The position numbers and the translations under genes were made by a program. This document shows positions 1,999 through 33,225 of a DNA stretch of 61,815 nucleotides, one piece after another. Within the stretch, counting starts at the first letter, position 1; each line of letters opens with the position of its first letter. Below the pieces are notes generated by a model that saw nothing but the letters and a program-made list of their open reading frames with translations, did no database searches and was not told the DNA's origin. Origin of the DNA: Hyphomonas sp. (lineage in GTDB: Bacteria; Pseudomonadota; Alphaproteobacteria; Caulobacterales; Hyphomonadaceae); the NCBI GenBank assembly GCA_046291585.1, contig JBKBRT010000001.1:1-61815 (forward strand), in the 5' to 3' direction.

Positions 1999-3474
1999 AT
2001 GATTGAAGACCCCGCCGCTACGGCACAAAGCCCCCAGGCTCACGCCGACACCGTGCCGCTCGTGCTGGATCTGGACGGAACCCTGATCCGGACAGATTCC
2101 CTTCAGGAACAAGCATTGACGCTGGTGCGCCGGAACCCGCTTGCAATCTTCAAGCTGATTGCCTGGGTCCTCGCGGGCCGCGTTGTACTGAAGGAGCGCC
2201 TGGCGGGCGCTGCCGACCTCGATGCAGAGTTCCTGCCCGTCAATGAAACCGTACTCGCTCTGGCGCAGGCTGAAGCAGCCAAGGGCCGCAAGATTGTCCT
2301 GGCCACGGCAGCCCATGCGGACACAGCCCGGCTGTTCCTGCAGCGGTTTCCTTTCATCTCGGAAATACTGGCGACCGAAGCCAAGCTGAACCTCAAGGGC
2401 AAAGCCAAGGCAGACGCGCTCGTTCAGCGTTTTCCGGGCGGTTTTGATTATGCCGGCGACAGCAGCGCTGATCTTGAAGTGTGGAAACGCGCCCGCAATG
2501 CCATCACGGTGGAAGCCTCCGGCGCCACGGTCCGCAAGGCCAAGACCACCGCAAACGTGATCCAGGTTATCCAGAGGCCGAGGGCGCTCAAACCGTTCGT
2601 CAAATGCCTGCGCCCCCACCAGTGGGCCAAGAATGGGCTTGTGGTTGTTCCTGCCATTCTTTCCGGCCGCATCATTGAACCCGACACTTTCCTGCCGCTC
2701 ATTCTCGCTTTCTTTGCCCTCTCGCTGACGGCGTCTGCGACGTATGTTTTCAATGACATCTGGGACCTGCAGGATGACCGCAGGCACTGGACCAAGAAGC
2801 GGCGGCCTTTTGCCAGCGGCGCCCTCTCCCTTCCCGCAGGCATCGGCGGTGCGTTGATCTGCTTCGCGGCCGGTCTCGCGCTCGCCCTGATGGCGGGAAC
2901 AGAAGTGCTGCAATGGGTGCTGGTCTATGTGGTCGTGACACTCACCTATTCCCTGTGGCTGAAACGCAAAGTTATTCATGACGCGCTGACGCTCGCCAGC
3001 CTGTTCACACTTCGGCTGGTGGTCGGGATGGTGGCGGTGGCGGCTGAGCCCTCTCCCTGGCTGTTTGTGTTCGCGATGTTCTTCTTCACGTCGCTGGCCT
3101 TTGCCAAACGCCACACAGAGATTGCGCGCGTGATTGAAAAGGGCGGATTTTGGGTGAATGGGCGCGGCTATCGCGCTTCGGACCTGCCGCTTGTTCTGGC
3201 GGCGGGTATCGCGAGTTCGGTCGCGGCCGTCATCATCATGGTATTGTACATCATCGAAGACGCGCATCAGAAAAGCTTCATCAAAAACGGTGACTGGCTT
3301 TGGGCCCTGCCCCCGCTGATCTTCCTCATTTCCAGCCGGATCTGGGTGATCAGCCAGCGCGGCGAACTGGACGACGATCCGGTGGTGTTTGTGGTCAAGG
3401 ACCGGATTTGCCTCGCCTATGCAGCGATGACCGGCATCAGCTTCTTCCTGGCCTGGTTTGGGGTTCCGCTTTGA
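1999..3474 (+). CDS. HAD-like domain fused to UbiA-family prenyltransferase (decaprenyl-phosphate phosphoribosyltransferase-like)
   Basis: N-terminal HAD motif LVLDLDGTL and GDS; C-terminal LRPHQWAKN, YVFNDIWDLQDDRRHWTKKRRPFASG, FAKR motifs and several TM helices; start set at ATG 1999. Confidence 0.88.
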   Translation: MIEDPAATAQSPQAHADTVPLVLDLDGTLIRTDSLQEQALTLVRRNPLAIFKLIAWVLAGRVVLKERLAGAADLDAEFLPVNETVLALAQAEAAKGRKIVLATAAHADTARLFLQRFPFISEILATEAKLNLKGKAKADALVQRFPGGFDYAGDSSADLEVWKRARNAITVEASGATVRKAKTTANVIQVIQRPRALKPFVKCLRPHQWAKNGLVVVPAILSGRIIEPDTFLPLILAFFALSLTASATYVFNDIWDLQDDRRHWTKKRRPFASGALSLPAGIGGALICFAAGLALALMAGTEVLQWVLVYVVVTLTYSLWLKRKVIHDALTLASLFTLRLVVGMVAVAAEPSPWLFVFAMFFFTSLAFAKRHTEIARVIEKGGFWVNGRGYRASDLPLVLAAGIASSVAAVIIMVLYIIEDAHQKSFIKNGDWLWALPPLIFLISSRIWVISQRGELDDDPVVFVVKDRICLAYAAMTGISFFLAWFGVPL

Positions 3475-8690: not shown

Positions 8691-8731
8691 GCGGATGTGG
8701 CGGAATTGGTAGACGCACTGGATTTAGGTTC
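8691..8731 (+). pseudogene. 5' half of the disrupted host tRNA-Leu(TAG) (attL)
   Basis: GCGGATGTGGCGGAATTGGTAGACGCACTGGATTTAGGTTC = acceptor 5' strand, D arm, anticodon loop; followed by unrelated AT-rich sequence; joins 33182-33225 to give an 85-nt cloverleaf. Confidence 0.93.
8721..8731 (+). repeat. attL core GATTTAGGTTC
   Basis: Identical to 33171-33181; centred on the 7-nt anticodon loop TTTAGGT. Confidence 0.92.
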
Positions 8732-8790: not shown

Positions 8791-8821
8791 TGTGTCCAAA
8801 ACTGTGTCCAGCGATGTGTCT
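8791..8821 (+). repeat. Left integrase arm-type repeats (TGTGTCY x3)
   Basis: TGTGTCC at 8791 and 8803, TGTGTCT at 8815; same triplet at the right end. Confidence 0.75.
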
Positions 8822-10554: not shown

Positions 10555-10908
10555 TTGGGGAATTGGATTGCAGCCATAGAAGGGATCATCGTTGCGGATG
10601 TCATCCGTTGGACGGAGGGCATCTATGAGAAACGCCGACGCAAGAAAGACAAACCCCGCCGCATCGGCGAGCGCCAAGTCACAGCGGAAGTTCTCGAAAC
10701 AACAAATGACGGATGGCTCAAGCTACTGGTTCGCGCATGCACGATCACCCAGGATGACTACGCAGGCAGCCGCCTCCCGATGCTGAACGCGGGGGACGAG
10801 ATCAAGCGGGCGCGTAAGACGGTTCAGCGCGGCAAAACAGAGCGCCTGCTTTGGAGTGACGAGACGGCCCGCAAGGAAGTTGATGCAACAAAACGGCATT
10901 CAAACTAG
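10555..10908 (+). CDS. Hypothetical basic protein
   Basis: 3' part of ORF 10321-10908 looks protein-like (DVIRWTE, VTAEV, RLLWSDE); TTG start after GCAGGGG, with TATAAT at ~10510; start uncertain. Confidence 0.5.
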   Translation: MGNWIAAIEGIIVADVIRWTEGIYEKRRRKKDKPRRIGERQVTAEVLETTNDGWLKLLVRACTITQDDYAGSRLPMLNAGDEIKRARKTVQRGKTERLLWSDETARKEVDATKRHSN

Positions 10909-13518
10909 CGATGGCTTGACTGCATTTTTTTGACGCTCACGGATTGAGTGAATCCAGTCTTCTAATGCTTTGACTTCATTTACGAGATCCTCGATCGAAA
11001 CTTGTTCTGGATTTAGAGCGTCCGCCGCCGAGTGAAGATCTTCGGATAGTCTCGATTGTGCACACATTACGATTTTAACATCTTCTTCCGTAAGCACACC
11101 AAGTCGGAACATGGAAGTGGGTTTTACCTTGTTGTCAAACCTCTCAAGGACTGGGCGAATATAATCGGAGATTGCCTGTTCCCAAGCGTCACGCAACTGA
11201 CCAATCGTGCCCTTGCAAAAGGTAGTGCGCCGAGTGTCGGTAAGCTTGTCGAAGTTGGGCTTTTCGGACTTGAGGGAGGACCGCAAGGCGTTGCACATCT
11301 CAAGACCAGACTTCGCTTTGTCGGGCAATTCATTCTCAATGTAGCCTGGCTTATCCTGCCGCCGTCTGACATTGCGAAAAGCGATGGGACGGTTTGCCTT
11401 ATCCGCCTCGCGGCGCAGCTCATATAGAAACACAAGATCATGAGTGAACACGACAACTTGTCGATGTTCTGCTTCTTCAACCAGCCGCGTTGCAACCGCG
11501 TTTCTGTGAACGTGGTCAAGCGACGACATTGGGTCATCAAAGACGATGCTGGAATAACGCTGCGCAGTTACTAATTCAGCAAGAAATGTGGCGAGTGCCA
11601 CGCACCTATGCTCGCCTTCGCTCAAAATCTCGCCAACTTTAGCGTCTGGTCGTTCTACCAAAGCCACGCGAAAATATGAAACTGCTTGTCGATCTTTTTC
11701 TTTGCGCAGCTCGACGGGCATTCGAGATAGCTTAAGCTTATCAATTTCCCTCGCAAATCGGCCTCGCAACGCATCTGTTACCATGCGGTCGGAAAGATCT
11801 TTGTTTTTGTCAGTGATCGGCTTTTTCGCTGTGGTTTTTAGCGCTGTCTTGATAGTGTCTATTTCCTTTAGGCGGGCGATATGGACCTTGATGTCCGCAA
11901 TCAAGGGCACAAGGGCAGCGCGATCTTTGAGTTCAACATATTCCGCTTTTAGAGCTTTGTAGGCGTCGCTTTGTGTGTCAGCCGATAACTGCGCAGCTCG
12001 CATCTTTAGGTCGGCGGCAAGAGCCGAGAGCGTTTCAATTGGATTGTCACTGAGTGGGTTAGGTTCACTTTTTCCTAGTACCATTGCTCGAAGACGCCAC
12101 AGCGCCATAACGAATGCGCGGCGAACTTTTCTAGCCAATGATGGGTCACCAATTTCGGTAACGACGAACTTGTATTGCTTCAGGATGTCAGTGCGTCGCA
12201 CTGCTTGTCTTCTCAACTCAGTGAGCGCAGCATCCAGGTTCGTACGCGCTGCAGCTTCCTCTTCCTTCGTCGAGCTTTTGACGAATGCCTCAAATGTCTG
12301 TTGGCGCGAGATTGCCTCCGCACCAAGCGACTGCTGACAAAGCACGCAAAGCGTTTCCGAGTCGCCAGAAGGAAATTGCTTTTCGGGATAAGCTACCGTA
12401 TTGGCGTAGTTTCGCGCCGCCTCCCACAATTTGAGCCAAGCCGCTTGTCCAACTTCTGGCAGGGGCGAGGCATTAAAAAGCTCTTGCGATGCGATCGATG
12501 CCGCTTTTGAAGCATTGTTGTGGTTCGTTCGCAGAGCGTCCAATTCAATGAATGCCTGAGGACTGGTAGCAGTGATGAGCCTGGCGAGTGATTCTCCTAC
12601 GCGTTCTATTTCGGCGCGATGGTTATCAAGCCTTGCGCCAGCGCGCTTTGGATCTTGTGCGAAATCAGCCTCTAGCGTCGCCAGTCGCGCAGCTTCCTGC
12701 TCACTGAGCGCAGCAAGTTTATCGAATTGTGGAATGTTGGACTTCGCATTTAGTTCGAAGAGATAGCTGCCAGCAGCTGTGTCTCTGCTTAACGACGGCG
12801 ACGAAATCAAAAGCGGCACTTGCTTTTCGAGCGCGGCAATCCTGCCTTCCAGTTCGATTTTGATGCGATCCGCAGCATCGGCCAATGACTCCATCAATCT
12901 CATTGGCCGAGGAATGTAAGCAACCTCGTTTGTGCTTTCGACATGTATGCTCGCGCTCCGCGAGTCGAATATGCTGATTGAGGGAAGATCGTCATGTGGC
13001 TTTCCATCAGGTGTCCAATCAAATTTCTCAATGTTCGGACCGCGAGCAAAGTTTATCTCAGCACTCTGTGGTGTATCAGTGGTGTCGACCAAATCTCGAT
13101 GTATTGAAAACTTTTCGTCTCGTGTTCGACAGGCATGCTTCAGTACGCGAACGTAACCCGACTTACCTGACCCATTGTCTCCATAAATCACTGTCAATCC
13201 TTGGGGTTCGAAGGATAGCTCTTGCTGGCTCGCAAGCGCATTGATAGCGATGGGGTTTTTTACAGAGACAAGTGAAATTGGCTCAGTCGTGCTGGCCTCT
13301 GCTACAATATGCGATTGTGATAGCGGAGCATGAGGGTGACTTGGGTCGAGGCATATCTCAGTCAGCTCGGATATAGCTTTTTCGTCAAGGCTTTCTCCAA
13401 CAATCAGACGGCGAAGTGCGTCTGTCTGCCATGCTGGTCGCTTTTCGGCCCAAACTACCAGGTCGGCAAGGGCGGCTTTCTCTGTTAGTGGTGCGGAATG
13501 CTTGGTCATTTGGCTCAT
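10900..13518 (-). CDS. SMC/Rad50-like ABC ATPase with zinc hook and HEPN-like C-terminus (RloC-like)
   Basis: 872 aa; Walker A GDNGSGKS, coiled coil with CVLC, signature LSEGE, Walker B IVFDDP, H-loop VFTHD; C-terminal LRDAWE...RLSEDLH. Confidence 0.8.
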   Translation of the reverse strand: MSQMTKHSAPLTEKAALADLVVWAEKRPAWQTDALRRLIVGESLDEKAISELTEICLDPSHPHAPLSQSHIVAEASTTEPISLVSVKNPIAINALASQQELSFEPQGLTVIYGDNGSGKSGYVRVLKHACRTRDEKFSIHRDLVDTTDTPQSAEINFARGPNIEKFDWTPDGKPHDDLPSISIFDSRSASIHVESTNEVAYIPRPMRLMESLADAADRIKIELEGRIAALEKQVPLLISSPSLSRDTAAGSYLFELNAKSNIPQFDKLAALSEQEAARLATLEADFAQDPKRAGARLDNHRAEIERVGESLARLITATSPQAFIELDALRTNHNNASKAASIASQELFNASPLPEVGQAAWLKLWEAARNYANTVAYPEKQFPSGDSETLCVLCQQSLGAEAISRQQTFEAFVKSSTKEEEAAARTNLDAALTELRRQAVRRTDILKQYKFVVTEIGDPSLARKVRRAFVMALWRLRAMVLGKSEPNPLSDNPIETLSALAADLKMRAAQLSADTQSDAYKALKAEYVELKDRAALVPLIADIKVHIARLKEIDTIKTALKTTAKKPITDKNKDLSDRMVTDALRGRFAREIDKLKLSRMPVELRKEKDRQAVSYFRVALVERPDAKVGEILSEGEHRCVALATFLAELVTAQRYSSIVFDDPMSSLDHVHRNAVATRLVEEAEHRQVVVFTHDLVFLYELRREADKANRPIAFRNVRRRQDKPGYIENELPDKAKSGLEMCNALRSSLKSEKPNFDKLTDTRRTTFCKGTIGQLRDAWEQAISDYIRPVLERFDNKVKPTSMFRLGVLTEEDVKIVMCAQSRLSEDLHSAADALNPEQVSIEDLVNEVKALEDWIHSIRERQKNAVKPSLV

Positions 13519-21800: not shown

Positions 21801-23228
21801 TCAGCGTGCGCGCGTGGGCGGGTCCGTTCCCGCCGAGAAACTGTCTTGCTCGGCCTGCTCGCGCTGGCGCTGCTCTTCTGCCAGACGCTGTGCAAATCGC
21901 TGCGCTTCCTCGTAGTCGCGGACGCGGCGGCTGAGCGTGGCTGTGAAATGCGCCTCACGGTCCTCGATCTGTCGGCTGTGCCGATCAGCAATCTGCTGAA
22001 GCTCTGTGGCTTTGAATTGTTCGATCCTGTCGATTTCTTCGGCGTGCTCATTTTCAAGTGCGGCGACGACGAGGTCGCGCGCTTCGGCGCGCTCGGCTTT
22101 GCGGCTCTCGCCCCAAGCGGGGACGACAAAGTCGATCACGCGGTCGATGATCTTTTGAACGCCCGAACGTTCGGCTTGCTGATCGTACTTTTCGAGGGCG
22201 GCGGCGCGCATGGCGTCTGACTGCGCCATCTGGTCTGCAAACTTCACATCCAAAGCGTGCGCGACTTGCGCGCGTTCAGTATGCTGTAGCTCAGCAAGTT
22301 TGCGCATGTCGTCGGCATGCCATTCCTTCAAAGTCTCTTCGAGCTTTTGAGGATCGGCCGCTTCCATTGGGGGCGGCTCGGTGATGGCAGGTTCCTGCGG
22401 CTCCGCTGTGGGTCTCGGCGGGCGCTCGGCCTGGATCGACTTTGCCTCTGCGACGCTTGGCAAAGCGTCGGCTTGCACATCGGCCATGAAGTCGCGCAGA
22501 TCCTTGGCGGTCACGCCTTTGATCTGCCGTGCGAGGCTATAGACCTCTCCAGCCTGATCAACGATCACAAAATCGCGGCGGTCGCCTTTGGCAATGACAA
22601 GTCCATCGTCGTCCAGCTTGGCGACGAATGCGCTGCCGCTATCCGAGGCATGATAGTGAGAGGTGACGCGATCCTTGAATGCCTTGGGGTCGATGCCCGA
22701 GCGTTCGGCCTGCTGCCATTCAGCATGGTTGAACTCGGCGGCTGGCATGGGCTGATCAGCAACACGTTTTTCGTGTTTGCCAGGCACGAGATCGTGCCCG
22801 AACTCCTTTTCAAGCGCGGCGCTGGCCCGTTCGTGGGCCTGATAGTTGTTGCTGTCGGAAACCAGCGTCATCGTGTCGATGTCGGTGCGCTGCCAGACCA
22901 CATGAATATGCTGGCGGCCATTCTTTTCGTGCAGAACAACGGCGCGTGGCTGGCCGTCGAGGCCAAGCTCGCGTTCGAGTACTTCCACGGCCCGCACCCA
23001 TTGGCTGGCAGTCATGCTGTACTGCTCGGCGGGATCGATATTGGCGTGGTAGAGCCCGCGCTTGCCTTTGGTGCCCTCGGCGATGAGCTGCCACTCCTTG
23101 AAAGCATCCCCGAGCGTCTGGGCGGAGGATTGCAGTTCGAGGATTTCGACGCGCTCGTTCGTATCGGCGCGGAGAAGGTGGGTTGCGAGTTGCTTGGGGC
23201 CGCTGCGGCTCTTGCCCTTGATAATCAC
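21801..23228 (-). CDS. Relaxase (MOBP-like HUH) with C-terminal coiled coil
   Basis: MIIKG start, LYHANIDP, VVLHEKNGRQHIHVVW (3H motif); GTGA overlap with mobC. Confidence 0.9.
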   Translation of the reverse strand: MIIKGKSRSGPKQLATHLLRADTNERVEILELQSSAQTLGDAFKEWQLIAEGTKGKRGLYHANIDPAEQYSMTASQWVRAVEVLERELGLDGQPRAVVLHEKNGRQHIHVVWQRTDIDTMTLVSDSNNYQAHERASAALEKEFGHDLVPGKHEKRVADQPMPAAEFNHAEWQQAERSGIDPKAFKDRVTSHYHASDSGSAFVAKLDDDGLVIAKGDRRDFVIVDQAGEVYSLARQIKGVTAKDLRDFMADVQADALPSVAEAKSIQAERPPRPTAEPQEPAITEPPPMEAADPQKLEETLKEWHADDMRKLAELQHTERAQVAHALDVKFADQMAQSDAMRAAALEKYDQQAERSGVQKIIDRVIDFVVPAWGESRKAERAEARDLVVAALENEHAEEIDRIEQFKATELQQIADRHSRQIEDREAHFTATLSRRVRDYEEAQRFAQRLAEEQRQREQAEQDSFSAGTDPPTRAR

Positions 23229-23584
23229 TTCGTGGGCACCCCCAGAACGGCCAGAATGGCCTTGCGAAGATCATCATGGGCGGCGAGCGCCGCTTGCAGC
23301 CGCGCCTCATCATACTCGTTTCGAGCATTGAGGCGGTGGGCGATCTGGTTGAGGTTGTTCCCGACACGGCCAACCTCGCCAACGAGGCGGCGCAGCATTT
23401 TGGCGTCGATGGGAACGCGGCGCTGGGCGCGCGGACCTGGATCGCCAAGCGCCGCAGCGCGCATGAACGCTCCTACGCTCATACCTCGGAGCGCGGAGAG
23501 TTCATCAATGGCGGCGCGCTCGTCGGGTGTGACACGTACCGTGATCGTGTCACCCCTGCGCCGCTTTTCGCTGCCACTCGTCAT
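23225..23584 (-). CDS. mobC: MobC relaxosome accessory (ribbon-helix-helix) protein
   Basis: ITVRVTPDE..I, GMSVGAFMR, GRVGNNLNQIAH; RBS GGGAGG before ATG 23584. Confidence 0.9.
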   Translation of the reverse strand: MTSGSEKRRRGDTITVRVTPDERAAIDELSALRGMSVGAFMRAAALGDPGPRAQRRVPIDAKMLRRLVGEVGRVGNNLNQIAHRLNARNEYDEARLQAALAAHDDLRKAILAVLGVPTK

Positions 23585-23640
23585 GCGCACCTCCCATTCG
23601 TATGGCGCGGCAGTCTGCGGAGGCTTTGCCTCGGCTCGGT

Positions 23641-23925
23641 CCAGCACGGTGCTGGCCCTGGTTCCAAGGGCGGGCAGCCTCCTTGGTCAGGCTCCAAGGG
23701 CTCGAAGGCCCATGGTCGTCGCTGGGGACGAAACCCCAGTCTGGCATCCAAAGGGCACGAAGGCTCTTTGGTCGTGGTTCCAAGGGGCGCGACAGCCCCT
23801 TGTGTCGTTGCTGGGGGCGAAACCCCAGTCAGGTTTCCAAAGGGCGCGAAGGCTCTTTGGTCGGGTGCACGGGGCGAAGCTCCTGCGCTCGGGGATGCAA
23901 CGGGGTATGCAATGACCCCTTGCCA
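23641..23925 (+). repeat. Tandem array of ~10 hairpins with an 89-bp higher-order repeat
   Basis: Hairpins at 23664, 23694, 23722, 23748, 23781, 23811, 23837, each with GTC at or just after its 3' base; 23716-23774 nearly identical to 23805-23863. Confidence 0.85.
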
Positions 23926-23960
23926 AGCCAGCCAATCGTAAACGATTGGCGGCGCGCGGT
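23896..23960. other. Candidate oriT
   Basis: Perfect inverted repeat GCCAATCGT-AA-ACGATTGGC (23931-23950) in the non-coding gap upstream of mobC-relaxase; nic site not identified. Confidence 0.5.
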
Positions 23961-24059
23961 GTGACCGCGCATGGCTTGCAGACTCCCGAATTACCTCAGT
24001 ATAGCAGAAAATCATTAACGATTGCCCGTCCCGCACTGCCGCAAAGAGCGCTGCGTTGA

Positions 24060-26669
24060 TCAAAAGCTGTGTTGCAGTTCGATCACGTCCTGCCGTGCTA
24101 AACCTGCCCGTTGGATATGGGCGTAGGCATGCCACCGGCCCATGGCGATAAAGTCAGCTGGAGTCATTGCGGGGGCTGTCGTATTGCCTTCGGTGCGGTA
24201 CTTGCGATCCTGATCTTCCTGCCGCCATGCCGCTTGCTGCATTGCACTAAGCGCTGCGAGCTGCGTTGGTTGGTCTGTGGCTGTGGGAACAAAGCGATTG
24301 TCCGTGGCATAGGTGGGCTTGGCAGATGCCTGGCCAATGCCGGCGCGCGAGAGAAAGCCCTTGGCAGCTTTAAAGAAGAACTGCGTGCCGGATCCCTCAT
24401 CTGGCGACGCAGCATCATCGAGATGATCGAAGGGCGACCAGCCGCTGATGAGCTTGCGCTGATCGAGGCTTTCCCACTGTCCGTCTCCAAAGACGCGGTT
24501 TCGCTCAAACTGGCCTGCCACCCAGCAGGCATAGGAAACGGTCGCCTGATCCTCGCTTCTGAGGAATATCTTGCTGCGGGATTGCTGCATGAAGTTTTCG
24601 GCGGCGTCCTTGCCTATGGCCTGCGTCAGCGCGGCCACGGTCTGGGTGGCAAAGACACCCGCAAGACCCGTCGAACGGGCGACGTTCCAGAAGGTCGCGT
24701 CCGACAAGCCCGTGGTCGGATCGACCGTGGCGAGTTCCTGCACCTCGTCCATGACGACAAGGCAGGGTTTGTCCTGGGGATTGGCACCTGACTGTTTGAG
24801 CGCGGCTTCGCGCAGCCGCGCTTCTCGATAGAGAACGGTTTTGAGCAGAATGGCGATCAGGCGCGCGGGCAAGCCGTCGTCTACGGTGTTGAGGGTGACA
24901 AGCGCGATCTTGCCATTCAGCGGCGCATCAAGACTGGCCGTGCCTGTGTCCAGCCCGCAGAGGAAGCGTTCACGCAAGATCGGCGCACCCGCGAAGCCAT
25001 CCATGAGCTGCGAGATATTGGCGATAATGCCTGTCTTAGTGTCCTTTGCCATCTCGGCCCAGGATTGGGTCAGATAGGTATGGCTCGCGACAACGTCTGG
25101 CCCTGCCAGCCGCGCGGTGCGCTCTTCGAGCTGCGTATAGGTGTCACGCTCACCAGCGGCGCGCGCCGTTTCCATGCGTAGGATATGGCCTGTGGTGGCT
25201 TTGCCGATGGCGTCGAGCGCAGGCTGAAGACGCTTTTCATCGATCACGGCCTGATAGGCCCACCAGAGGCTGTAGGGATTGAGGTGGCGCGCTTCTGCCT
25301 GGCCTTCGGGCGTTTCCGCGTAGGCGCGCCCGATGGTCAGCATGTGCCGCATGACGTTTGCGGCCATGTCGGGCCAGAAGCTGTCACCGCGCCCGCCGCC
25401 CATTTGGGTGAGCACAGAACGCAGCGTGGCAGCGATCTGGTTGGGCGATAGTTTGGCGGTGATGTTCACGCCAAGCTCGCTTGCGCCTGTGCCGATGCGA
25501 ACAATGTCGGCCTTACGCCCGACCTGCTCGGCAATGCGCTCGGCGTCGCGCCACAGGACGCCCTTGGCGTCGGTGACGTACGCGCCGAACTTGGGCTCGG
25601 CGAGAACCTGCGTCATGAGCGGCTTCAGTATGGCGGTGGTTTTTCCATCGCCCGTGCCGCCAAAGACAAGCAGATGCTGGAACAGCGACTCCCGATCCAG
25701 CGCGAGCGGCTGATCCTTGACGGGAGCGGCAAGATCGCCGCGCAGGCGCAGCGTGCCTGTTCCCGATCCCACTTTGAAAAGTGGTGATCCGCTGAGGTAG
25801 CCATTGGCATGGCTGACCTGCCGCACATAGCCCGTGTGGGCCAGTGCGCGCGCTTCGGCGCGGTAGCTCCAGCGCACATGCGCGTCTTTGGAAATGGCCT
25901 CATAGGGCGCAGCGGCTATGCTGCGCCAATGCTCGACAGCGGCCACCGCGACGAGCAGGCCAATGCCAAGCGCGATCAAAACCCATGCGGTGATCAGCGC
26001 CGCTGCAAGCAGCAGCGCGAAAACAAATCCGCCAGCGGCATCGGCGGCCATGGCCTGCCAGACCGCCCAGCTTCCGAGGTAGATCGGCTCGTCGCCTGGG
26101 AATTGCTCCAGCAGGACTTGTTCAGCGTGGGTTTCGCTGCGCGTAAAATACCAGATCAGCCCAAAGATAATCGGCTGCGCGGCAAGTGCGATCAGCGCGG
26201 CCATTAGGCCAAGGCGGCCCGCTGCTGTGGACAGTCCTGCATTAAAATGGCGGTCGGCCATCCACGGCAGATCAATGCCGCCAACAAGTTTGCCGTCTTC
26301 CCAAAGAGGGCGACGGATATCGTCAGGCACTTCGGAATAGAGAAAGGGAAAGCGGCTTTCTGGCCACATCTCTCGCGCGACAGCGTCGCGATTACCAGAG
26401 GCGAGCCCTTCCTTGCGCGCGCCTGTTGTTTCAACGGCGCGGGCGAACAGGTCACCTGCACGCTGAAGGGGAGGCACACGGGCGATCAGCCACTGGATCG
26501 GACGATCTGCGATCCATGCCACTGTGCCGAGTACAAACAAAAGCATCGCTGGTAAGACATTGAGCAGCGACATGGCAATGCTGCGCACAGGCGGCAACAA
26601 CACAAGCGCAGCGGCCACCACGATGGCGGCGAGCGCCATCAGCAAACCGATATCAAATCCTTCGGTCAT
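24060..26669 (-). CDS. Type IV coupling protein (VirD4/TraD-like)
   Basis: 869 aa; N-terminal TM helices; HLLVFGGTGDGKT, SFW, VVMDEVQE, ARS.G...FATQ. Confidence 0.85.
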   Translation of the reverse strand: MTEGFDIGLLMALAAIVVAAALVLLPPVRSIAMSLLNVLPAMLLFVLGTVAWIADRPIQWLIARVPPLQRAGDLFARAVETTGARKEGLASGNRDAVAREMWPESRFPFLYSEVPDDIRRPLWEDGKLVGGIDLPWMADRHFNAGLSTAAGRLGLMAALIALAAQPIIFGLIWYFTRSETHAEQVLLEQFPGDEPIYLGSWAVWQAMAADAAGGFVFALLLAAALITAWVLIALGIGLLVAVAAVEHWRSIAAAPYEAISKDAHVRWSYRAEARALAHTGYVRQVSHANGYLSGSPLFKVGSGTGTLRLRGDLAAPVKDQPLALDRESLFQHLLVFGGTGDGKTTAILKPLMTQVLAEPKFGAYVTDAKGVLWRDAERIAEQVGRKADIVRIGTGASELGVNITAKLSPNQIAATLRSVLTQMGGGRGDSFWPDMAANVMRHMLTIGRAYAETPEGQAEARHLNPYSLWWAYQAVIDEKRLQPALDAIGKATTGHILRMETARAAGERDTYTQLEERTARLAGPDVVASHTYLTQSWAEMAKDTKTGIIANISQLMDGFAGAPILRERFLCGLDTGTASLDAPLNGKIALVTLNTVDDGLPARLIAILLKTVLYREARLREAALKQSGANPQDKPCLVVMDEVQELATVDPTTGLSDATFWNVARSTGLAGVFATQTVAALTQAIGKDAAENFMQQSRSKIFLRSEDQATVSYACWVAGQFERNRVFGDGQWESLDQRKLISGWSPFDHLDDAASPDEGSGTQFFFKAAKGFLSRAGIGQASAKPTYATDNRFVPTATDQPTQLAALSAMQQAAWRQEDQDRKYRTEGNTTAPAMTPADFIAMGRWHAYAHIQRAGLARQDVIELQHSF

Positions 26670-31367: not shown

Positions 31368-31608
31368 CATTAGAGGACAGATTCTTCCATAATGCGCATA
31401 TCTATTTGATTATATACGTATTTATTGTGGACAACTTTTGGTGACGTGCGCTGTCGCTCGTCAAAGTCCATTAGCGATGGCCGATCCCGTTCGGGACAAC
31501 TCTGGCCACCATGCGCCGCGTTCGCGGGGCATTTCGCACACTTGGGTCGCACGGTGCCGCGCTCTGCCCTGCGTGAGAAGCAGTCCTGCTTCTTGAAGGA
31601 AATATGAG

Positions 31609-31693
31609 TGGTGCGGATAGAGGGACTCGAACCCACACACCTTGCGGCGACGGTACCTAAAACCGTTGCGTCTACCAATTCCGCCATATCCGC
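31609..31693 (-). tRNA. Element-encoded intact tRNA-Leu(TAG)
   Basis: GCGGATATGGCGGAATTGGTAGACGCAACGGTTTTAGGTACCGTCGCCGCAAGGTGTGTGGGTTCGAGTCCCTCTATCCGCACCA; 85-nt cloverleaf with long variable arm, encoded CCA, one T-T mismatch in the T stem. Confidence 0.95.
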
Positions 31694-31764
31694 ACGTCGG
31701 AATACTCAGTCTAGGATATGGCGAAACTTTTCGCCACGGAGAAATGCGGCATCATTTGCCAGAA

Positions 31765-33054
31765 TCAGTGATGATCTGGGCGCGCCTCGGGCTTGCCCGT
31801 TGTGCGGGGCTTGGCTGGCGCGCGCCGTGCGCGCGGACGCTTCACATTGATGGCGCCAGCATCCAAGCGATCCTTGATGTGGGCAGCATAAAACTCTTCG
31901 ATCATTTTGACGCTGGTGCGGCAGTTGTTTGCGATCTGGTGAATGTTCGCGCCCTCCATGAGGCGCGTAGAAATGTAGGTATGGCGCAGGCTGTAGGCCG
32001 TGCGCTGGCGACCGTCGCGGTCGAATTTAAGTCCTTCTTCTTGAAGTATCTGATTGAATAAGTGCCGCTTGAACTTGCGGAACACGAGTTGATCGGGTGG
32101 CAGTTCAGGGCGAGGGGAGCCTGCGGGCTGTTGATCGTTCAACTCCTTTTCACGCCGCGCCCGAAGTCGGCGGAAAGGCTCCACGGCGCCAGGCATGCTT
32201 TTGCAGTAGCCGACCCCAGTTTTGCCGCGCACATCAATGACGAGGATTGTCTCCTTCGTTGCGGCATCATCTTCAATACTCACATCGCGGAACTCCAGCC
32301 GCGAGGCTTCATCGGGTCGTAGTCCAGTGTTGGCCATGAACAGCACAAAATCGTGCATGTCCTCATAGTGGCTTTTCCAGCCAGGACGCCCTCCATCGGT
32401 GATCCGCTTGCGGGTCGCCGTATAGAGCTGCTTGTACTCTTCGGGTGAGAACCAAGCGTGGCGGCCTTTCTTTCCCTGTGTCATGTAGGGCTGGGAGAGG
32501 CTGGGCACGAAGGGAATCCAGCCCATGCCCTCTGCGTACTTCAAGACTTGGCGGATAATGACGATTTCCTGAGTCATTGTACTGCGGGCGGGTTGCCGCC
32601 CTTGTTGAGCAGGTTGGTCACCCTGCGCAGGTTTTGCAGTCTTTGCCATAAAGTCTTCGGCCCGCTTGACGCGGTAGGCTTGCACCATTCCTCGGTTGAT
32701 TTCTGAGAGCGCCTTCTCTGCGAAGAAGGGGAGGATGTGTACCTTAAGGCGAAGCTCCACCATTGCGACGTACTGCGGGCTGCGCGTCGTGGACGCGAGC
32801 ACGCGGATTTCGCGCACATAATGCTCGGCGGCTTCTTTGAATTTGCGTTCCTGCTTGATGATTTCGCCACGGCGCAGCTTGCCGCGCAGGTCGAGATACC
32901 ATTCCTCAGCAACGTCCTTGGCGCGGTCCAGATCTTGCTCCCGCGTGGACTCCCTGTAGCGCTTGCCGCCGACCCGCGCAGAGCACTGCCAGACGCGGCT
33001 CTGGGGGCGTCGGTAAACCTGCAATCTGCCATCAAACATCTGGTGTGTGGTCAC
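31765..33054 (-). CDS. Tyrosine recombinase / integrase
   Basis: NTGLRPDE, RGKTG, YSLRHTY, MIEEFYA catalytic motifs; N-terminal arm-binding-like beta domain; adjacent to attR. Confidence 0.93.
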   Translation of the reverse strand: MTTHQMFDGRLQVYRRPQSRVWQCSARVGGKRYRESTREQDLDRAKDVAEEWYLDLRGKLRRGEIIKQERKFKEAAEHYVREIRVLASTTRSPQYVAMVELRLKVHILPFFAEKALSEINRGMVQAYRVKRAEDFMAKTAKPAQGDQPAQQGRQPARSTMTQEIVIIRQVLKYAEGMGWIPFVPSLSQPYMTQGKKGRHAWFSPEEYKQLYTATRKRITDGGRPGWKSHYEDMHDFVLFMANTGLRPDEASRLEFRDVSIEDDAATKETILVIDVRGKTGVGYCKSMPGAVEPFRRLRARREKELNDQQPAGSPRPELPPDQLVFRKFKRHLFNQILQEEGLKFDRDGRQRTAYSLRHTYISTRLMEGANIHQIANNCRTSVKMIEEFYAAHIKDRLDAGAINVKRPRARRAPAKPRTTGKPEARPDHH

Positions 33055-33065
33055 GGCTTTCTACC

Positions 33066-33093
33066 TGTGTCCGAGTGTGTCCAAACTGTGTCT
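33066..33093 (+). repeat. Right integrase arm-type repeats (TGTGTCY x3)
   Basis: TGTGTCC at 33066 and 33076, TGTGTCT at 33087, directly upstream of the integrase start. Confidence 0.75.
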
Positions 33094-33170: not shown

Positions 33171-33181
33171 GATTTAGGTTC
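33171..33181 (+). repeat. attR core GATTTAGGTTC
   Basis: Identical to 8721-8731. Confidence 0.92.
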
Positions 33182-33225
33182 CAGCGCCGCAAGGTGTGAA
33201 GGTTCGAGTCCTTTCATCCGCACCA
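33171..33225 (+). pseudogene. 3' half of the disrupted host tRNA-Leu(TAG) (attR)
   Basis: GATTTAGGTTCCAGCGCCGCAAGGTGTGAAGGTTCGAGTCCTTTCATCCGCACCA; CATCCGC pairs with GCGGATG at 8691 and TCCAG with CTGGA; no 5' half upstream. Confidence 0.93.

Follow-up and report, generated by a model that had tools for sequence, protein, structure and literature searches.

A mobilizable island of Hyphomonas splits tRNA-Leu(UAG) and brings a spare copy whose altered anticodon stem may guard it from the island's own integrase

Introduction

Tyrosine recombinases bind core-type sites that flank the overlap region. The overlap is 6–8 bp long and mismatches within it are deleterious (PMC10865867), so that a site can be disabled either in the overlap or in its flanks. 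In the tRNA-dependent lysogeny described for actinobacteriophages (Fionnbharth and clusters K4, L and X; PMC10865867), a tyrosine integrase with arm-type sites flanking the core uses an 8–17-bp core in a tRNA gene, the gene is not rebuilt, and the phage carries a same-isotype tRNA. The phage tRNA differs from that of the host. The spare tRNA is itself a potential target, a matter on which the sections of PMC10865867 drawn on here only speculate, suggesting that plasmids may use the tRNA that they carry as an integration site. In Sinorhizobium meliloti, Lo5R7ANS-like prophages (PMC11476347) share with the locus described below the isotype, the host class, the central split and a divergent (80.6%) replacement tRNA. 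In the anticodon-centred (type A) tRNA islands catalogued by Islander (PMC4383910), the tyrosine integrase crosses over in the anticodon loop, as is proposed here, and the gene is restored from the attP fragment. Introns in tRNA genes have been proposed as a host protection against integration (Randau and Soll, cited in PMC3488258).

The locus analysed here lies in a 61,815-nucleotide stretch of DNA from Hyphomonas sp. (contig JBKBRT010000001.1, hereafter the window). It holds an island that works like tRNA-dependent lysogeny (PMC10865867) but is no phage.

Results

The island and its ends

The features of the locus are as follows (window coordinates).
8691–8731, plus strand: 5' half of the host tRNA-Leu(UAG), with the attL core (8721–8731) at its end; matches tRNAs of genus mates
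8732–33170: integrated element of 24.4 kb bounded by the two cores, an integrative mobilizable island with defence cargo
8791–8821, plus strand: three TGTGTCY direct repeats inside attL, predicted arm-type sites
21801–26669, minus strand: mobilization module (Pfam PF03432, PF21983, PF10412)
21801–23228, minus strand: relaxase
23225–23647, minus strand: MobC/NikA
24060–26669, minus strand: type IV coupling protein
31609–31693, minus strand: complete element-borne tRNA-Leu(UAG) (ARAGORN Leu(tag)) with encoded CCA and anticodon stem ACGGT/ACCGT
31694–31764, minus strand: 71-nt spacer between the integrase stop and the tRNA, a weak match to the promoter-like pattern upstream of the tRNA of relatives
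31765–33054, minus strand: tyrosine integrase of 429 aa (weak match to Pfam PF00589, E 5e-4)
33066–33093, plus strand: TGTGTCY in three direct repeats inside attR, predicted to be arm-type sites
33171–33225, plus strand: attR core (33171–33181) with the 3' half of the host's tRNA-Leu(UAG)

The Pfam matches of the scanned element ORFs include no phage family, and the relaxase, MobC, coupling protein and defence genes are not those of a temperate phage. The matches include no mating-pair family either. An integrase and a relaxase without a full mating-pair system characterize an integrative mobilizable element, and the island may be so classed on its gene content. Just upstream of mobC, a 60-nt direct repeat occurs twice (23715–23863), the copies being 90% alike and separated by 89 nt; this is possibly the transfer origin. 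The defence cargo, for which there are PADLOC matches, includes a type IIG restriction-modification gene, an IetA/IetS-like pair, PDC-S06 and PDC-S11. The PDC-S06 protein is an 872-aa ABC ATPase (10900–13518, minus strand) with a CXXC and a C-terminal R-x5-H motif; presumably it resembles the RloC-type nucleases and may be RloC-like, and an atlas search with its C-terminus returned unnamed and AAA_13 clusters only.

Homologs of the 429-aa protein at 63–81% identity are named integrase; in the comparison of the island integrases the region of R246, H358 and Y389 is invariant. The plasmids searched contained only distant integrases, with less than 60% identity. The TGTGTCY motif occurs 14 times in the window, six of these in the two end clusters, and it likewise follows attL in the relatives.

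The split host gene

Inverted-repeat matches led to the two halves of a host Leu(UAG) gene, both on the plus strand and sharing the 11-bp core GATTTAGGTTC (8721–8731 and 33171–33181). Joined, the halves form a normal cloverleaf. At three of 28 genus-mate loci (L008, L013 and L014) the intact tRNA has exactly this sequence, and the reconstruction is therefore sound. Its anticodon stem, CTGGA/TCCAG, occurs in 25 of the 28 loci. The split falls in the host anticodon loop, and the 7-nt loop TTTAGGT is presumed to be the crossover region. ARAGORN called a working tRNA at neither attL nor attR, and the target is not restored by an attP fragment, unlike in an Islander-type tRNA island. No second intact Leu(UAG) was found beside the element copy in this assembly, which is 85% complete, and the long open frames contain 862 CTA codons. 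Of 20 genomes searched, 19 likewise gave no match to an intact Leu(UAG) other than the element copy; the exception, G477, also has a host-type copy. In the window, as in 11 of 27 genus-mate loci (L002–L029), the host-type gene stands in inverted orientation with respect to tig/yjeF.

The element-borne tRNA

The only tRNA called by ARAGORN in the whole window is the element copy. In agreement with the sequence-only reading of this DNA, pairwise comparison with the host gene gave 12 differences in 85 nt, all in stems, with identical loops and variable arm. Three compensatory swaps (27:43, 28:42 and 31:39) turn the anticodon stem from CTGGA/TCCAG into ACGGT/ACCGT, again as that reading had described; counted from the loop, the first, fourth and fifth positions are changed and the third is kept. 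A further compensatory swap is at 7:66. The T-stem is changed at 50, 51, 63 and 65, such that 51:63 is compensatory, G49·U65 becomes G-C, and A50-U64 becomes a U·U mismatch; one of the 12 changes is not compensatory. The earlier claim that the spare no longer carries the att core is overstated: the 31:39 swap does lie inside the core, altering two of its 11 bases, but nine of the 11 bases and the whole loop remain. That six of the 12 changes fall in one 10-base stem is not striking in a single gene; the excess is at the family level.

The cloverleaf rests on ARAGORN, as the minimum-energy folds of both tRNAs were uninformative (z −1.2 and −1.7). The promoter-like pattern assigned to the 71-nt spacer comes from a family alignment judged by eye, and a scan of 31400–31900 for sigma-70 promoters and terminators returned nothing. 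The contigs examined contained no joint or strain variant at the tRNA and are uninformative on excision.

Spare tRNAs of related elements

A complete Leu(UAG) lies just downstream of the integrase in 28 of 58 loci with related integrases, with the host 3' half usually upstream on the other strand. Ten of the 58 target Leu(UAA), and Leu(CAA) or Ser(CGA) is carried in isolated cases. The remaining loci are cut by contig ends, are distant or, in L039, have no spare despite room downstream. The test set comprised the 31 elements in which a host 3' half is present; 26 of them come from genomes (window included) and five from metagenomes. L052, dropped by the script, and L051 and L076, which have no host half, are outside it. 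The background consisted of 88 alphaproteobacterial Leu(UAG) genes, namely the first 60 of 129 matches with A31 and 28 of 110 without it, a ratio close to that of the same 200 genomes (129 A31 to 60 non-A31, counted by hand); being even across families, it under-samples the CTTGG and GCAGG stems of the family to which the Sphingobium genome belongs. Three unpublished genomes (G290, G098 and G653) enter only the class, A31 and Caulobacter-family tallies; they stand outside this background and support none of the conclusions.

Base 39 or the loop is changed in 29 of the 31 spares, where the background predicts a fraction of 0.40, although the relatedness of the elements and of their tRNAs makes such counts overstate the contrast. 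The null expectation for this change is flat with distance in the rest of the gene. Spares have on average 2.9 mismatches to the host in the 3' stem versus 1.5 for background genes. The stem pattern Y27-N-R29-G30, defined after the data were seen, is present in 85 of 88 background genes versus none of the 31 spares (one of 32 if L052, whose spare has the usual Y-N-R-G stem, is included). When distinct stem-loop types are counted instead of genes, 12 of 13 spare types are changed versus 16 of 29 background types (Fisher p 0.03).

Both ends are available for 18 elements. Their attP arms, on which no tRNA constraint acts, carry the host base at the three loop-adjacent positions in 14, 16 and 12 cases on the left and 15, 14 and 12 on the right, and the match decays farther from the loop. 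The spares match the host at the same positions in 4, 18 and 2 and in 2, 18 and 2 of 18, and the background match rates are 0.60, 1.0 and 0.47. The second loop-adjacent pair, G30-C40, is invariant in all tRNAs compared. At least two of the features kept in attP, a set that was also defined after the data were seen, are broken in 29 of 31 spares versus six of 88 background genes, or in 12 of 13 spare types versus five of 29 background types. Three stem types are still attP-like, two of which have two loop mismatches instead. In L031 and L048, whose integrases are the closest relatives of that in the window, loop bases 32 and 38 are changed instead.

The pattern has exceptions. In three of the 28 spares (L051, L078 and L086) the 11-bp core is kept and only the outer stem differs. 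The host of L032 itself has G31-C39 and is targeted nonetheless, G31·U39 hosts are also targeted (L041 and L056), and one attP arm of L163 has A39, so that one swap on its own cannot stop every member of the family. The likeness between attP and host may come from ancestry rather than from binding. Several attP arms look like decaying tRNA halves (attR of L038, L040, L042, L045 and L071; attL of L060), which suggests that ancestors rebuilt the tRNA before gaining a spare.

Several other arrangements were seen at these sites. More distant integrases in L066, L067 (Ser CGA), L073 and L091 (Leu CAA) are accompanied by spares of the same isotype, and the Ser(CGA) and Leu(CAA) spares each differ from the host 5' half in the stem or loop. 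An integrase-less mini-element of ~1 kb, containing a spare with an ACGGC stem and one small ORF, splits the host Leu(UAG) in L009 (G025:C48, 750–1800), and the same element occurs in L249. Degenerate second Leu(UAG) copies lie near an intact one in L364 (G024:C36) and in L032 (13501–13585).

A sister clade with an intron-bearing tRNA-Leu(UAA)

A sister clade of the integrase splits tRNA-Leu(UAA), and its 10 loci among the 58 carry a spare interrupted in the anticodon by a group I intron of 200–280 nt. The loci considered were L057–L061, L063, L064, L068, L072 and L075, together with L267, L269, L272, L274, L278, L280 and L282. The intron gave Rfam matches above the gathering threshold in five of seven loci scanned and was recognized in the others by ARAGORN or by motif. 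All 10 Leu(UAA) genomes have only the host 5' half and the intron-bearing copy. In host/spare pairs the three loop-adjacent host bases are kept in 14 of 14 and the whole 5' stem in nine. The site is thus broken in the DNA while the RNA stays host-like, which fits a cause acting at the DNA level. Intron-bearing Leu(UAA) lies beside this integrase in seven of 27 loci and without it in 20. The intron was matched in 47 of 401 genomes of the class, mostly without this integrase. L059 contains a marginal Rfam match to the twister-sister ribozyme (3222–3303, minus strand; 34.3 bits, cut-off 34).

Phages and viral contigs with unrelated integrases

The integrase of phage Lo5R7ANS is unrelated to that of the island (21% local identity). 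Its Leu(UAG) has a CTTGG/CCAAG stem, and an attP-like site just behind keeps host-type flanks. At least two unrelated integrase groups use this Leu(UAG) loop, with the same changed stems. The first 80 of 105 viral loci contributed 81 Leu(UAG) matches, a sample restricted to non-A31 genes; the stem pattern is broken in 12 of 13 matches near an integrase versus 17 of 68 without one. The matches without an integrase mostly have the 31:39 swap alone (CTGGT/ACCAG), the form that dominates viral multi-tRNA arrays and also occurs in two large alphaproteobacterial phages. In L516 (1860–3300) a second element lies in a host-type site 67 nt from a changed tRNA and not in the tRNA itself, a single event. 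L516 and L460 are both cases of nesting, in which a second element with its own changed Leu(UAG) occupies the host-type site of the first. A search for a phage donor of the window's tRNA gave a best full-length identity of 81% and no close source.

Origin of the spare tRNA

The nearest relative of the window's tRNA differs by 5 nt, has the same stem and lies at the chromosomal yjeF-tig locus of G092, a member of another family in which it is the only such copy (one of 15 matches). Of 89 metagenome loci with the ACGG stem, 11 lie beside this integrase and 27 lie by tig or yjeF without it, in both orientations. The occurrence of the ACGGT/ACCGT stem in other elements and in chromosomes makes foreign origin a part of the story, so that origin from another species, offered by the sequence-only reading as an alternative, is not merely an alternative. 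The window's tRNA is probably a member of a shared mobile pool and not a recoded host tRNA, judging from these matches. Two readings were rejected: that it was recoded from the gene of its own host, since the same stem occurs in other elements and as a chromosomal copy elsewhere, and that a non-A31 stem denotes an element-borne gene, since such stems are common in chromosomes (110 of 401 genomes of the class).

The family of the Sphingobium genome has chromosomal CTTGG in 15 and GCAGG in seven of 140 matches (counted by eye). In L293–L322 and the matches of this family, the tRNA backbone is nearly fixed and the anticodon stem has eight or more compensatory versions. Element-type genes make up 13 of 133 matches in the Caulobacter family; five adjoin this integrase, and none of seven other published copies that were checked does so within the flanks taken. 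Lone element-type copies stand at tig/yjeF without an integrase in L366 (G763:C32), L367, L368, L354, L357 and L372, and in L366 a scar-like host-type 5' half lies ~600 nt away. The interpretation favoured here is that lone chromosomal copies are leftovers of decayed elements rather than donors.

Discussion

What the sequences show directly is a split host gene with an 11-bp core, a spare gene, and stem differences that recur across the family. The explanation that we judge best, and somewhat probable on the comparative evidence, is that the anticodon stem of the spare is kept different from that of the host as a safeguard against recombination by the integrase. The integrase would cross over in the 7-nt loop and read the flanking bases, and the spare would be an expressed, essential gene. 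If its flanks were host-like, the excised circle would contain a second attB at 1.5 kb from attP. Recombination there would invert the integrase (as arranged here) or delete it (in the same-strand clade) and break the tRNA, or else take in further copies; a broken spare would mean loss of the tRNA on which integration depends. Under such selection the copies that persist would be those with changes at free stem pairs or at loop bases 32/38, or those with an intron. As base pair 30:40 cannot change, the nearest free pairs (31:39, 29:41 and 27:43) or loop bases 32/38 would change instead. The spares would be drawn from a shared mobile tRNA pool, sorted and kept, and not recoded afresh for each host. 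The earlier proposal that selection removed the integrase flanks and kept tRNA function thus finds comparative support as regards a spare that is not recognized, but not as regards recoding from the host.

Other processes could leave the same stems. An ancestral element, or several, may have captured a Leu(UAG) with an unusual stem that the descendants inherited, the loss of the att site being a by-product without selection. The same-stem copy of G092, the 27 of 89 metagenome ACGG-stem copies by tig or yjeF without this integrase and the chromosomal CTTGG and GCAGG stems of the Sphingobium family accord with capture, as does the Sinorhizobium case, in which the tRNA was read as coming from unrelated Alphaproteobacteria (PMC11476347). 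Yet the 13 stem-loop types are scattered over the integrase tree (a quick tree of 29 of the 31 elements, with long branches for L046 and L047), and nearly all break at least two attP-kept features. Moreover, the G092 copy stands alone in its family, and the lone Caulobacteraceae copies are patchy and, with the host-type half of L366, look like leftovers. Capture without selection is for these reasons considered unlikely as the whole explanation. In a further reading, the changed stems resist an anticodon nuclease of host or element, as phage tRNAs resist PARIS or OLD. Such resistance would suit the ABC ATPase of the island, if that protein is indeed RloC-like, and the predominance of the 31:39 swap alone in viral multi-tRNA arrays and its presence in the two large phages. 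In E. coli tRNA-Lys, the change of a U-A pair to A-U confers resistance to PARIS (PMC11464382). The intron clade, however, leaves the mature stem-loop host-like, multi-pair changes accompany integrases and not tRNA arrays, and no ATPase homolog was found in the flanks of L031–L091 (at most 10 kb). The window's tRNA, furthermore, gains rather than loses the CNG stem motif needed by P2-OLD (PMC12445682). Resistance to a nuclease is accordingly rated as quite improbable. By itself the 31:39 swap is frequent in chromosomes and phage tRNA arrays, which leaves both nuclease resistance and foreign origin some standing.

The least probable reading, to which we give very little credence, is that the changed stem excludes competing Leu(UAG) islands or lowers the identity to the two host halves. 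The use of this loop by at least two unrelated integrase groups with the same changed stems speaks for competition, and the inversion of the tRNA in 11 of 27 genus-mate loci implies a recombinationally busy site. Long stretches identical to the host halves remain, however (positions 8–27 and 45–58), which argues against reduced homology, and exclusion of competitors would act by the same mechanism as avoidance of self-recombination, such that the two cannot be told apart here.

More tentatively, and with rather more doubt than belief, a pool of integrase-proof tRNAs (Leu(UAG) with stem swaps, Leu(UAA) with a group I intron) may be kept by site-destroying elements throughout the Alphaproteobacteria; after the decay of an element its tRNA would be left as the sole chromosomal copy, immunizing the lineage against re-integration. 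If so, elements would repeatedly replace a core tRNA gene and drive both the polymorphism of the Leu(UAG) anticodon stem and the scattered distribution of the intron in Leu(UAA). The family offers a position-specific, testable answer as to which flanking pairs change and which cannot, with the intron clade as a built-in contrast. It also points to a reason, apart from codon bias or escape from nucleases, why mobile tRNAs may have unusual anticodon stems, to a route for swapping essential tRNA genes between lineages and, for genome engineering, to a design for a single-use tRNA landing site.

Compared with the Fionnbharth-type phages (PMC10865867), with which it has the kind of integrase, the arm-type sites, the unrebuilt gene and the same-isotype tRNA in common, the present element is a mobilizable island and its tRNA is fixed directly behind the integrase. 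The text of that report used here does not analyse the stem changes as protection. The Lo5R7ANS-like prophages (PMC11476347) differ from the island in being phages. The type A islands of PMC4383910 restore the gene from the attP fragment, which this island does not, and the Islander orientation filter, as described there, would reject a tRNA and fragment on opposite strands such as those found here; the island class is one rejected by tRNA-fragment finders. In the openly accessible literature searched, with PMC10865867 and PMC11476347 taken without their supplements, nothing was found on att-proof stems in replacement tRNAs; a term search of PMC13626063 likewise gave no match. As with the introns of Randau and Soll (PMC3488258), the att site of the sister clade is interrupted in the DNA and the RNA is kept; unlike in their proposal, which concerns hosts, it is the element that carries the intron-bearing copy, and the window's clade relies on stem swaps. 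Elements of the kind that destroys its target tRNA and supplies a spare are known, and what is new is the family-wide, att-avoiding pattern of the spare.
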